Assembly (NCBI GenBank): GCA_041572575.1
Contig: JBFFSH010000006.1
Location: forward strand, 1 to 52,849
Origin: Thermodesulfobacteriota bacterium
GTDB taxonomy: Bacteria; Desulfobacterota_D; UBA1144; Nemesobacterales; N074bin48
Length of the DNA stretch: 52,849 nucleotides
Reading direction: 5' to 3'
In this document: one piece after another, positions 18,001-24,000 of the stretch
Layout: each line of letters opens with the position of its first letter
Numbering within the stretch: position 1 is the stretch's first letter
Program-made: the position numbers

Positions 18001-21000
18001 GCGCTGAAAATACAAATCCCAAAACAAGTGCACCTAAGATTATGGGTAGTATGAATTTTGTAGTACGGAAAATATAGCTGGCTATTGTTAGCTGTTTGTA
18101 GTTATTCATGAATCTTGTTTCATACCTCCAAAATGCATATAACTTTTAGTTAATGATTACAGAAAGCTTAAAAAAATTTAGACTTTTTTGTGATTTAATT
18201 ACCTGAGATTTAGTTAATTGCTTATTTAGATATAACTTTTTAAAAATGTTTTAAACTTAAACAAAATCTAACACTAATTTAATATTAAGCTTTACTTATC
18301 ATCAACCTCTTTATTTATGTTTAAGATATCCTGTATTTGCCAAATATTAGTGATATCTGTTTTTCGCTCCCTTTCTTGCTCCCTCTTAATACTTTAATAT
18401 TAATTTACCCGCTTATTTTATTTCTTCAACTACAAATTTTATGATTTTAGTCTTAGCTGTATAATCCGAGAACCACATATTTTTTGACTGATCTATTATT
18501 ACCTTAAAGTTTATATAAAATAAAGTCGTGGATTCAATCACTTTACTATGCCCTGCAAAGTTAAACCTCACTCTGGAAATATTAGGCATAAGAACCGATG
18601 GGTATCATGTACTTAGATCAATCATGCAGCCGGTTGATCTGTTTGATGAGCTTACCGTTTGTTCTGAGAGTGGATCAGGTATTGAACTTGAAACTGAAGG
18701 ATTAAAACTTCCTGATATTAAAGAAAACCTGGTATACAAATCAGCTGAGCTTTATCTAAAGGAAACAGGTATATCTACAAGGCTTCAGCTAAAACTCAAA
18801 AAGAAAATCCCGATTCAGGCAGGTCTTGGCGGAGGGAGCAGCAACGCCGCAGCCACACTTGTAGGACTTAACAGAATATACTATGCACTAAGCACCGACA
18901 GGCTGATAGAATTAGCCGCTCAGATTGGGGCGGATGTTCCATTTTTTATTCACTGCCGTACGGCACTCATGGAAGGTATTGGGGAAAAAATAACAGTCTT
19001 AAACGATTTTCCGCTTCTGAATTACCTCATTGTTAAACCATCTTTTGGACTTTCTACAGCGGATGTTTACAAGAAATGGGATGAAATTGGCACTAGCAGT
19101 AACAATAATTTAAATATTGGAGAAATAATAGAAAAATATCAAAATGGACAAGTTATTCTCAGAAATGATCTTGAACAAGCTGCTGAATCACTAAATTCTG
19201 GTATATCCAAGCTCAAAGAGCTGTTAAAACAGCTGGGCTGCAGCAATGTGCTAGTGAGTGGAAGCGGAACTGCCGTTTTTGCAATTTTTACCTCTCAAAA
19301 CGAGGCAAAGGACATATATGACTACCTTAATGACAGCGGTGATTACAGTGTATTTCTTGCTAAAGGCATATCAGGATGGCACAGACTGTCTTAAGTACTT
19401 GATATAGAATAAAAACCTTGGTACTATACGGGCTTTTTTGGGGCGTCGTTCAACGGCAGGACACAGGCCTTTGACGCCTGGTATGGTGGTTCGAATCCAC
19501 CCGCCCCAGCCAAGAAGCTTTCTTTTTTGGCTGAATAAAAATGAATTTGTATTAAAAATGTTAAAAATAAATGATTAAAAACAGATTAAAAGCAACTCAA
19601 GGTATAGCATTTAATTTTTCAATCAAACTATAAATATAACCCCAAGGAGAGAAGAAGGAGAAAATAATGAGTTTAAAAATACGTGATGATCTAAAGGAAT
19701 CCTACCCCGATGTTTATACTCCGGAAGCCTTAAGCGCCCTGGAAGCTCTTTCGAAATTCAATAGCGAACAAAAAGCTATTATGAAAAAAAGATATAAAAA
19801 AAGGGCAGATAGAGCTAAGAATAAAGAAAGAATCGATTTTTTAGACCCAAATTCAGTCATACCACGTACTAATATTAAGGTACAGGACGCAAGAGACGGC
19901 AAGTTTGAAGGCGGGGAGATCCCGGCAGACCTACAGCGCCAGTGGATTCAGGGTACGGGCCCTGCAGCAAAACCCGACTCTCCCACCGAGGTTAGTATAA
20001 GAAACGTAGCATACGCAATTCTTTCAGGTGCAGACGGATGGATGTTTGACGGTGAGGACGCCCTTGGGCAGATCACTTCTATGTCACTGGACAATCAGAG
20101 AAACCTCAAGCTTGCAATAGATAAAGACCCCGTATTTTTAAAAACTTCAGAAAAAGTAGCAGCTTCTATGAACAAATGGGGCAATCAGTTTTTTGGCCGT
20201 GATATTATTGAAGATTGGGAGAAGCAGCTCGATTTTACCACCAAGATTTTCAGAGCAAGAGGTCTTCACCTTGACGACAGACACATTCGTGATGAAAACG
20301 GCGTGGCAATGTCGGCTTCAATTGTGGATATGGTCTTATATGTAGCAAACAACTATAAAACACTGCAAGCAAACGGCTCTTCCATCTGCCTCTATCTTCC
20401 TAAAATTCAGACAGCAGAGGAAGCAGCGCTTTGGAACGAGATGCTAAGCGCACTTGAAAATCATATTGGTATCGCAGAAGGAACAATAAAGGTATACGTA
20501 CTCATAGAACAGCTGGAAGAAACATATCAGCTAATGGAAATACGTGCAGCTCTTGGAAAACACTTTGTGGGTTTTAATACAGGCAGATGGGACTATATTA
20601 ACAGCGTATCTGATGCCATGGCATGGGATAAGGATTTTATCAACCCTAATATTGAATCAATTACAATGACGTACAGCTATATGGCAGCCTACGAAGACAG
20701 AGTAAGAAGAGCTGTTAATACTCCGGACATTAACGGCAACTTTGCTCTATGGCAGGGCGGTATGGAGCCTAATATCCCGGTTGGCACTGAAGAGGGTGTA
20801 GCCAGCAGTATGGAAAAGGCAGTGGCCGGTGCTGAAAGGGAGCAGAGAGAAGGCGCAAGTGGAAAGTGGGTAGCACACTGGAAGATGGTTCATATAGTAA
20901 GACCAGTTTGGGAAAAAGTTGGTGAAGCTAACCAGCTTGGAAGAAAGTTTCCGCCTCTTACATATACTGAGGAAGATTCTCAAGCCCTCACCCATTTAGA

Positions 21001-24000
21001 ACCTGCCCCAAGATCTATAAGGGGAGCAAGAAACCTGCTTAGCGTAGCCCTGCAGTACGGAAACGCATTCGGCCAGGGCTTTCAGGCAGCAGCGCTAAAA
21101 CCAGCAGACTTTTTTGAAGATGATAATATTCTTTATCTTATGGAAGACGCTGCTACCGGAGAAATTCGCCTGAGTATCCTATGGGAATGGATCCACAAGG
21201 GAGCAAAATTAAACGAAGACGATGCAGAGACCGGCCTGAAAGCAGGGGATACTTTTACTGTAGAAATATTCAATAAACTTTTGGAAGAAGAGTATGAAAA
21301 GCTAAGAAATGCCAAGGATAAGGACGTTTATGACATTTCAAAAGACACGACTCTTCCTATCGCAAAAGAAATTGTTAGAACCTATGTACTAGATGAAGTG
21401 AAAGTACCATGGTACATTGATCTTCTTAACATCAATTTAAACAATCACGATTTGCAAACAGCAAAAAAGAGAATACAACAATATATGACAGCGTTTAAAA
21501 AAGACGGTACAAGAATTACCGAAAACCTGGACTTTGTTGTATCTTAAAAAAATTAAATAATCAGGAGAGGAGAGCACAAGAAAATGGGTTCAATGGAAAG
21601 CGAAGCAAAAAGAATTAAGTCATATTTTTCAAGCCAGAGATTCAAGGGAATTACAAGGCTGTATTCTGCAGAGCAGGTAGTCGCACAGCAGGGAACAATA
21701 AAAAATGACTATACAATTGCTAAAGAGGCATCAATAAAGTTTTATAAACGCCTTAGAGAACTGTATTCAAAGAAAAAATCTATTACAACATACGGACCTT
21801 ATTCCCCAGGACAGGTCATCATGATGAAACGCGCCGGGATAGAGGGAATATATCTTGGCGGCTGGGCAACATCAGCAAAGGGTTCAATTACCGAAGACAG
21901 AGGTGCAGACCTAGCAAGTTACCCTCTAAGCCAGGTACCTGACGATGCAGCAGTACTTGTTAGAGCTCTTCTGAGTGCTGATAAAAACCAGCAGTTTGAA
22001 AGATCAAGAATGACAGAAAAGGCCAGAAAGGCTACACCCGAGATTGACTATACTCCATATATAATTGCAGATGCCGATACAGGGCATGGTGGTGACGCTC
22101 AGGTAAGAAACCTGATTAGAAGGTTTGTTGAGGTAGGAGTAACCGGATATCATATTGAAGACCAGAAACCCGGTACTAAGAAATGCGGACATCAGGGCGG
22201 TAAAGTTCTGGTACCTGTAGACGAACAGATCAAAAGACTAAATGCAGCAAGGTTCCAGCTGGACATTATGGAAGTACCGGGAATCATCGTTGCAAGAACA
22301 GATGCTGAGGCAGCTACCCTTCTTGAAGGCAGAGGTGATGAAAGAGATCATCCGTTTCTCCTGGGTGTAACCAACCTAACCGTTCCGGCTTATAAAGATG
22401 CCTACCTATCAATTTTAAAAAGATTTTATGATAAGGGTATAAAAGATATTAACGGTCATTTGCTATATAAAATCTCAAATGATGTTTATAAATCTTGTTA
22501 TGCATGGCTAAAAGATGTAGGGGTCTTGGAGATTGCGGACAGCAACATAGAAGCATATAAAAAAGGCAAGAAAACTTCACTCGACAAAACACTTGATGAT
22601 GTAGTGAATAAATTTGTAGAAACATGGGAAGCAGAATCTGGGATCAAGACATTTAGAAAGGCAGTAGCCGACAGGATGGAATTCAGGGCAGAGGAAGGCA
22701 CAGATTTTGATATGACAGCAGAGCAGTGGGACGAATTTGCAAAACAGGTATCACTTTCCGAAGCACAGAAAAAAGCCAAGGATATGGGACTAAACGTCAC
22801 ATGGGACTGCGAGCTCTCAAGAACCCCTGAGGGATATTATCAGATACAGGGTGGAATTGAATACGCAATTGCAAAGTCTCTTGCGGTAGCTCCTTTTGCA
22901 GACATCCTCTGGATGGAGACAAAAACAGCTGATCTTGCAGATGCTAAAGAGTTTGCTGATGCAATTCATGCTGTATTTCCGGATCAGATGCTCGCATACA
23001 ACCTCTCCCCTTCTTTTAACTGGGATACAACAGGTATGTCTGAGCAGGAAATGAAAGATTTTCCAAGTGAAATTGGAAAGCTTGGTTTTGTATTTAACTT
23101 TATCACTTATGGTGGCCACCAGATTGACGGTCTTGCATCTGAAGAGTTCTCAAGAGCTCTGCTTGAAGACGGAGCGCTTGCTCTTGCAAGACTGCAAAGA
23201 AAACTAAGACTTCTGGATTCACCGTACAGAACACCACAAAGCTATGTTGGTGGTCCCAGAATGGATGCGATGCTTACAGCTTCTTCAGGTCGTACAGCAA
23301 CCACAAAAGCAATGGGTAAGGGATCCACTCAGTTCCAGCACCTTGTACAAACAGAAGTTCCAACAAAGGTACTGGAAGACTGGCTCGAGATCTGGGCCAA
23401 GCATTACAAGATTAAAGGCTCTCTCAGGGTTGAGCTCAGACCAAACAGAGCGGGTTCTGATCTGCTTGAATTAAACATCTTAAGCAGCAGATCAAAAAAC
23501 AAGATGGCCGATGTAATTTTTGGTTCCATTCAGGATTTAAGGGGCAAGAATATTATATCCATAAGAGATCAAAACACATACAGCACTGAATTCAGGCAGA
23601 AACGTCTCATGACAATAATCCATCTGTTCCTGATTCACAGATACAAAGGCGATTCGGTTCATTATGTAAATCCAACAGATGACAATATGAAGCAAACCCA
23701 GGGCATGAAAAAGCTTGGTATTTATAGCGAGGTTAATACCGAAGTTGGCGACATAATCGTTGCCGGTATTAATGCTAAGAAAGTAAAAGACCTGCTAAGC
23801 GAAGATCAGGTGGATCTTAAAAACCTTATCGCTAAAAAGGATAGTGCTAAAAAACCAGCAGCAAAAAAGACAGCTTCAAAAAGAAAATAAGTATTTAATC
23901 TTACAATAAGACTCCAGGCCGTGATTACACGGTCTGGGGATTTTTAGTCTCCTTTAAAGTAATCCTTAACTATAGTCAAAGCAATTAATGAAGATGCTCC

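Follow-up and report, generated by a model that had tools for sequence, protein, structure and literature searches.

Analysis of the window (the whole stretch of DNA studied here, 52,849 nucleotides from a Thermodesulfobacteriota bacterium) reveals a two-gene operon of the glyoxylate shunt in which the entry enzyme, a Group III isocitrate lyase (ICL2), is probably gated by acetyl-CoA. The genes and their domains, the conservation of their residues, their distribution and the absence of AceK are observations; catalysis, tetramer formation, CoA binding and activation of this ICL2 are expected by homology. The features of the locus are listed in Table 1. The source organism is a marine bacterium.

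Table 1. Features of the malate synthase-ICL2 operon, in positions of the window.
Feature	Position	Strand	Basis
tRNA-Gln(TTG) followed by a hairpin; upstream boundary	19439..19533	+	hairpin z -3.3
Malate synthase, 626 aa, long MSA-like subfamily	19667..21547	+	Pfam MS_TIM-barrel and MS_C
Spacer, 36 bp, with AGGAG ribosome-binding-like site and in-frame TAA	21548..21583	+	
ICL2 (Group III isocitrate lyase), 768 aa	21584..23890	+	TIGR01346 440 bits (above cut-off); full-length 6edw match
KKCGH catalytic loop, residues 199-203	22178..22192	+	same in 213/213 aligned ICL2 sequences
Helical insert, residues 264-414 (M. tuberculosis 278-428)	22373..22825	+	alignment to 6edw
C-terminal GNAT-like putative CoA-binding domain, residues 587-752	23342..23839	+	8g8k match
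Lys/Ala-rich basic tail of ICL2	23840..23887	+	lies C-terminal to the M. tuberculosis match
Terminator-like hairpin at the operon's end	23912..23939	+	12-pair stem and T run; z -4.4

Judged by its sequence, the gene at 21584-23890 is a complete Group III isocitrate lyase. The alignment with 6edw spans query residues 5-752 with a single gap (1126 bits), and 8g8k matches residues 591-752 (E 2e-56), which bears out the earlier note's description of a full ICL2 with insert and C-terminal domain. The KKCGH barrel, the helical insert, which aligns without gaps, and the C-terminal GNAT-like domain with its linker, conserved at ≥95% in 15 of 18 positions, are all present. Identity to 17 ICL2s labelled as mycobacterial or actinomycete is 63-65% (470-485 of 751-752 columns), and basic tails like that of the window protein also occur in Dadabacteria homologues. 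An ESM Atlas search with the C-terminal domain returned hypothetical clusters only. The protein is the only isocitrate lyase of the genome, as had been claimed, the sole other match being a 298-aa PrpB-like gene on contig C51.

The upstream gene encodes a divergent member of a long subfamily resembling malate synthase A (MSA). It had been taken for an ordinary malate synthase, a designation that does not hold, since neither of the two NCBIfam models for this enzyme scores the protein above its cut-off: 249 against 594.5 bits for TIGR01344 (malate synthase A) and 23.9 against 565 bits for malate synthase G, which is about 725 aa long. The AF2 model of the synthase (pTM 0.90) finds its best Foldseek matches in the MSA structures 3cux, 3cv2 and 3cuz (TM 0.71-0.75 by query, E 5e-27). 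The catalytic residues R196 and D494, located from the 3cuz alignment, and the putative Mg ligands E281 and D309 are invariant across 50 homologues; residue roles for the MSA pair Arg166/Asp447 have been described (PMC11347633). The fold and the catalytic Arg/Asp are thus those of malate synthase A (E. coli AceB, 3CUZ/3CV2; 3CUX), whereas the window protein is approximately 100 aa longer than the ~530 aa of MSA and only 25-28% identical to it. The same long synthase stands alone in many Bacteroidota.

The open reading frame coordinates confirm that ICL2 lies 36 bp behind the malate synthase. Both genes share one reading frame, and the split between them is real because the junction contains two in-frame TAA codons (the synthase's own and that of the spacer), ICL2 has its own AGGAG, and the two genes are likewise split in the sister genome G030. 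Together with the spacers of 20 split relatives, which measure 26-93 bp and show no frame preference, these features rule out read-through or an assembly error; one open frame over both enzymes is not present in the window. A promoter scan gave 4 sites against 9.9 expected, none of them ahead of the synthase gene. Contigs were obtained from 4 of the 20 listed runs: X1 spans all 12 kb with even coverage, as DNA would, and X6, X8 and X9 consist of scattered short pieces. Co-transcription of the two genes is presumed by homology.

In M. tuberculosis, acetyl-CoA activates ICL2 50-fold, and the C-terminal domain, the fold of which is GNAT-like (PMC6788997), is needed for this activation (PMC6788997, PMC13102942). 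Alignment of 213 non-mycobacterial ICL2 sequences reveals that R661, R671, R674 and R686 of this domain are invariant in all 213, and that P697, N701 and the RDQN..R[QK]KRL segment are invariant or nearly so. Comparison of the domain with that of G030 yields 79 synonymous and 25 amino-acid-changing codons, by which measure the domain is under purifying selection. The inhibitory latch of the M. tuberculosis enzyme (E385/E387-R608/R699) is preserved in half, in that the window protein keeps E371 (E385) and R686 (R699). Three of the five residues highlighted in M. tuberculosis differ: E387 is T373, R608 is T594, and R665, which touches the acetyl group in simulations, is L652. All five belong to the mechanism of a single enzyme and are not what defines Group III. 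Position 608 is P, T or I in 203 of the 213 sequences versus K in 17/17 mycobacterial or actinomycete-labelled ICL2s, and position 665 is Arg in 142 and Leu in 71. The docking loop reads NRAGSDLL in the window and RRAGSDVL in mycobacteria. The enzyme is called allosteric here by homology: with E387 and R608 lost and Leu at R665, but the putative CoA-binding motif invariant, activation by acetyl-CoA is likely and may be weaker than in M. tuberculosis.

The partial latch also permits a different reading, in which the domain does bind CoA compounds while the lyase is mostly active to begin with, strong gating being a mycobacterial refinement that requires the full latch and R665; the ligand would then tune only KM, or acetyl-CoA and CoA would not be told apart. 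[quoted passage not shown] Additionally, a sole isocitrate lyase may require a basal flux. However, the same mutant still responds to acetyl-CoA, R699 is invariant in all 213 sequences, and 206 of them have E or Q at position 385, so that this reading is considered unlikely.

Acetyl-CoA gating of the operon, the preferred explanation, would proceed as follows. When acetate or fatty-acid use raises acetyl-CoA, the ligand would bind the C-terminal domain, the domains would re-pair, and their 621-628 loop would dock near the active site and increase the efficiency of the lyase. Isocitrate would thereby be diverted from isocitrate dehydrogenase and cleaved to succinate and glyoxylate, and the malate synthase would condense the glyoxylate with acetyl-CoA. 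Basal activity may lie above the mycobacterial level, because only half of the latch is kept. Such gating would replace the phosphorylation switch by AceK, which was found in none of 120 phylum genomes with a search that scores in the E. coli control; no malate synthase G exceeded the cut-off in the same genomes. Genes of the window genome include those for an AcsA acetyl-CoA synthetase and for two acyl-CoA dehydrogenases, plus two of the Iso_dh family; crotonyl-CoA carboxylase gave no score above the cut-off.

Conservation of the domain for structure, for docking of malate synthase or for an acetyltransferase role, and not for sensing, would fit the GNAT-like fold, the constant pairing with malate synthase and the repeated fusions. 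This is quite improbable, in that mycobacterial-type loci hold the same conserved residues with a long MSA-like synthase nearby in 0 of 80, Pfam GNAT gives no match on the window ICL2, and deletion of the domain in M. tuberculosis spares basal activity and abolishes activation. A main role in methylisocitrate cleavage, within a methylcitrate cycle that disposes of propionyl-CoA, is suggested by the ability of activated M. tuberculosis ICL2 to cleave methylisocitrate. It can practically be dismissed, as the genome, which is 96% complete, yielded no PrpD or PrpF and does contain methylmalonyl-CoA mutase, and the operon partner is malate synthase.

The claim that the order keeps ICL2 widely is borne out in a sample of 120 phylum genomes, larger than the 61 used earlier: ICL2 occurs in 86 (previously the C-terminal domain in 46 of 61), and 34 have open frames of 1416-1434 aa (14 previously). 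The same long synthase is found in 84 of the 86 and in 0 of the 34 genomes without ICL2; among 101 genomes from the order, the window query detected no ICL2 in 15. Word-limited database searches yielded 841 near-length and 49 longer ICL2 proteins, and a further search 241 representatives of 50% clusters. ICL2 occurs in many bacterial phyla, including in cultured Pseudobacteriovorax antillogorgiicola. The Acidobacteria and Calditrichota members noted earlier were recovered, but the count of 3225 proteins with the domain was not reproduced. None of 381 plasmid matches covered 80% of ICL2. Being the sole isocitrate lyase here, paired with the synthase and fused to it in many relatives, the enzyme belongs to a widespread environmental type.

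All 20 relatives fetched from families f2 and f8 encode a synthase-ICL2 fusion of 1,412-1,429 aa, which supports the report of fusion in two families, and the fusions in G007, G092 and G078 are confirmed. Neither the fusion nor non-mycobacterial ICL2 is confined to Dadabacteria; Acidobacteriota, Planctomycetota and the cultured Pseudobacteriovorax have fusions as well. Some standalone ICL2s bear a fission scar. In the fusion model the linker has a pLDDT under 50 and the pTM is 0.55, versus 0.90 for the synthase alone, a low value that is compatible with a defined arrangement within the tetramer. In fused relatives some 12 flexible linker residues would tether the synthase to the lyase tetramer, which would provide 1:1 stoichiometry and proximity and not a rigid channel.

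Trees were built from 88 rows and later from subsets of 45 and 32 rows. A single origin of the fusion is rejected (p-AU 1e-5, 32 rows), the fusions not forming one clade. Mycobacterial ICL2 nests inside the environmental family in two trees, in which the outgroup branch is long, and the alternative to this nesting is not rejected (p-AU 0.063, 32 rows). We tentatively propose, at somewhat less than even odds, that the long MSA-like synthase and an acetyl-CoA-gated ICL2 form an old environmental module that has repeatedly fused and split and serves many phyla as an AceK-independent switch of the shunt. Mycobacterial ICL2 would be a late offshoot in which the partner synthase was lost and the complete latch acquired, and the fusion chain would sense acetyl-CoA, make glyoxylate and consume both, thereby limiting itself.

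The system represents a known enzyme with an extended range and varied architecture, and no new chemistry. The natural latch variants offer a means of testing how the allosteric mechanism arose, gating by acetyl-CoA is a candidate answer to how bacteria lacking AceK control the TCA/glyoxylate branch point, and the fusion gives metabolic engineers a glyoxylate shunt on one chain. The environmental distribution contradicts a claim, made in 2026, that Group III isocitrate lyases occur only in mycobacteria. A literature search, conducted largely outside subscription journals, found no paper on ICL2 in Dadabacteria and no survey of non-mycobacterial Group III enzymes. Novelty is lowered by NCBI, which already labels some MAG proteins as ICL2, and by a passage of Kondrashov 2006 (PMC1630690), which mentions a non-mycobacterial isocitrate lyase with the insert in Anaeromyxobacter dehalogenans, grouping with the second mycobacterial enzyme, and, in passing, an ICL/MS fusion. 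The likeness to this fusion is by description, the passage not mentioning the C-terminal domain. Its rule that every bacterium with a mycobacterial-type enzyme also has a typical one fails for the 86 phylum genomes with ICL2.

A comparison with the bifunctional enzymes of Euglena and Acanthamoeba (MS-ICL) and of nematodes (ICL-MS), again by description, reveals both glyoxylate enzymes on one chain, in the same order in Euglena; these are eukaryotic, and the passages describing them do not mention an ICL2-type C-terminal domain. Among the closest known systems is M. tuberculosis ICL2 (6EDW, 6EDZ, 6EE1, 9OBO; 8G8K), which shares the domain order, length, KKCGH, insert, C-terminal domain and docking loop, from an organism that likewise lacks AceK according to an excerpt of PMC12088919. 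The window enzyme, known from its genes, differs in its half latch, the L at the R665 site and the basic tail, and it is the only isocitrate lyase, its gene sharing an operon with that of an MSA-like synthase, whereas mycobacterial-type loci stand without such a neighbour.

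The window lyase aligns with M. tuberculosis ICL2 (PDB 6edw) over residues 5-752 with 1126 bits and one gap; the alignment spans the helical insert as well as the C-terminal domain, which also matches 8g8k. The protein scores above the cut-off of the isocitrate lyase model TIGR01346 and is 63-65% identical to 17 stored ICL2s labelled mycobacterial or actinomycete. It is the single isocitrate lyase (ICL) of a 96%-complete genome, in which the second match is a PrpB-like gene. The taxon is taken from the labels of close homologues, which read Candidatus Dadabacteria or Thermodesulfobacteriota. 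The gap from the malate synthase gene to the ICL2 gene is 36 bp. The earlier note had described a full-length ICL2 with insert and C-terminal domain, the sole ICL of the genome, directly behind a malate synthase gene, all of which is borne out. Its interpretation is also largely right: by each structural feature testable in the sequence, the lyase belongs to Group III, and the allosteric part stays an expectation from sequence.

Features of the ICL2 locus and its surroundings
Feature	Position	Strand	Remark
tRNA-Gln and hairpin			5' boundary of the gene pair
Malate synthase gene	19667-21547	+	626 aa
ICL2 gene	21584-23890	+	768 aa
Lys/Ala-rich tail of ICL2	23840-23887		frequent in Dadabacteria homologues, fused and split alike
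Terminator-like hairpin	23912-23939		3' boundary of the gene pair
Genes 3' of the operon	23985-32551		cytochrome c, response regulator, nitrilase-family hydrolase, TPP enzyme, agmatine/peptidyl-arginine deiminase family protein, FAD/Fe-S oxidoreductase-like (read from sequence)

The synthase carries the Pfam synthase domains and scores 249 bits against the malate synthase A (MSA) model (cut-off 594.5) and 24 bits against the malate synthase G model (cut-off 565). The best structural matches of its predicted structure (50-row alignment, pTM 0.90) are MSA structures (E 5e-27, 25-28% identity). Residues E281 and D309 occupy what we take to be the positions of the Mg ligands. These two residues, as well as R196 and D494, are unchanged in 50 homologues and 55 fusion rows. 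R196 and D494 are aligned to E. coli Arg166 and Asp447, the roles of which are taken from PMC11347633. The synthase is an active-looking member of a long MSA-like subfamily without a name.

In M. tuberculosis ICL2, acetyl-CoA on the C-terminal domain increases kcat/KM 50-fold (PMC6788997). This domain is required for activation, the loop 635-642 comes to lie docked close to the active site, in simulations the acetyl group is touched by R665, and the off state is kept by E385/E387 with R608/R699, such that loss of E385 and E387 increases basal activity 10-fold (PMC13102942). Among 213 non-mycobacterial ICL2 sequences, a redundant set rich in Dadabacteria, the motif KKCGH and the residues R661, R671, R674, R686, P697 and N701 (window numbering) are invariant, and 37 of the 166 positions of the C-terminal domain are at least 95% conserved. 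Between the window and the sister genome G030, this domain shows 79 synonymous and 25 amino-acid-changing codons. By analogy with GNAT folds, the R..KR segment is a putative pyrophosphate-binding loop. However, E387 and R608 are not conserved outside mycobacteria and the R665 position is Leu in the window protein, and therefore either an activated or a weaker form is to be expected. Given the conserved domain, CoA-thioester binding with activation would probably apply to the window ICL2; a weaker, partly constitutive form, to which the three substitutions point, seems rather unlikely. Genes for acetyl-CoA synthetase and acyl-CoA dehydrogenases are present, and crotonyl-CoA carboxylase, PrpD and PrpF were not found in the genome (96% complete), a gene set that fits assimilation of acetate and fatty acids better than a methylcitrate cycle.

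ICL2 is present in 86 of the 120 phylum genomes searched, which are kin and not independent samples: 86/101 of the order (families f1 2/2, f2 9/15, f3 0/2, f4 5/5, f5 1/1, f6 0/6, f7 37/37, f8 32/33) and 0/19 of family f9. A second, ICL1-type lyase occurs in none of the 86, and the same query did detect one in G117, an f9 genome that carries a short 439-aa ICL1-type lyase in place of ICL2 (contig C6). The synthase is found in 84 of the 86 (both exceptions have assemblies broken into 420-500 contigs) and is absent from all 34 genomes without ICL2. Neither AceK (E. coli control positive) nor malate synthase G was detected in the 120 genomes. Frames of 1416-1434 aa are present in 34 of the 41 ICL2 carriers of f2 and f8, the other 7 being partial or broken matches, and in no carrier of f1, f4, f5 or f7. 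All 20 long frames retrieved from the 34 are single ORFs of 1,412-1,429 aa in which the synthase precedes the lyase; at all 20 loci retrieved from the 44 remaining carriers (window genome excluded) the two genes are separate, and the synthase gene lies 26-93 bp upstream of the lyase gene. The wide retention in the order and the fusion in two families, as previously noted, thus hold. In G076 (C2:123595-125867), the fusion frame is broken near lyase residue 74 by a frameshift or an assembly error. A model of fusion residues 1-1,199 (pTM 0.55) shows both enzymes folded and a low-confidence linker, and the synthase may plausibly be tethered to the lyase.

The synthase has at least 590 GTDB matches; of the best 80, 22 are fused, 21 have ICL2 as the downstream neighbour (one at 1.8 kb), 30 lack an adjoining ICL despite room downstream and 7 end at a contig edge. 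Fusions are titled Acidobacteriota (5), Planctomycetota (2), Krumholzibacteriota, Myxococcota and others; titles among the split pairs are, for instance, Calditrichota, Gemmatimonadota and Bacillota. Of the 30 ICL-less loci (L080, L090, L101, L122, L124, L127, L135 and others), 22 are Bacteroidota, cultured Spirosoma and Nibrella included. Locus L077, titled Spirochaetia, falls within the f7 clade at a distance of about 0.03 and is probably a mislabelled or misbinned contig; MAG titles can be wrong, and all those used here call for caution. The same fused architecture is present in 49 database proteins of 1,364-1,553 aa, including one from cultured Pseudobacteriovorax antillogorgiicola, labelled malate synthase A/isocitrate lyase by NCBI. 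Such counts are too low, because gene callers truncate fusions: the 794-aa 'isocitrate lyase' P0061 has the same sequence as the lyase portion of L037, an intact 1,420-aa fusion. Proteins P0212 and P0324 (from a cluster of 309 in which one member bears the label Binatia) represent a divergent ICL2 lineage of 815-819 aa, 42% identical, with a complete C-terminal domain and KVCGH where others have KKCGH. In P0247 (3,076 aa), the ICL2 C-terminal domain (residues 2040-2162) lies beside a GNAT domain, and an ICL domain was not detected.

A single clade of fusions is rejected (p-AU 1e-5), and a 45-row tree requires at least 7 fused/split state changes among labelled rows. An N-terminal extension of at least 13 residues, mostly 30, is present in 49 of 105 standalone ICL2s (730-830 aa; within P0024-P0118). 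Many extensions resemble a decaying copy of the synthase C-terminus and fusion linker, which points to an origin of a group of approximately 785-aa standalone ICL2s by fission of a fusion; sampled rows of the extended group adjoin the f2 fusions in a second tree, of 88 rows. Mycobacterial ICL2s are nested in the environmental family in both trees, with split operons titled Clostridia and Terriglobia as their sister group, and an alternative to this nesting survives the topology test (p-AU 0.063).

Unlike in the window operon, this synthase was nearby in 0 of 80 metagenome loci closest to a Mycolicibacterium ICL2 (45 with more than 2 kb upstream). The finding has partial prior art: 'isocitrate lyase ICL2' is already the NCBI label of several MAG proteins, and in PMC1630690 an ICL of Anaeromyxobacter is grouped with the second ICL of mycobacteria, and a fusion in that genus is listed. 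The claim made there that bacteria with such an ICL always retain a typical ICL is contradicted by the ICL2 genomes examined here. The finding would nevertheless surprise ICL2 specialists. PMC13102942 states that Group III ICLs are observed only in mycobacteria, PMC6788997 calls the C-terminal domain unique, and the synthase/ICL fusions listed in the passages concerned of PMC8219788 come from protists only. The features that distinguish the present system are an operon shared with a long MSA-like synthase, the sole-ICL status, the half latch, and recurrent fusion and fission.
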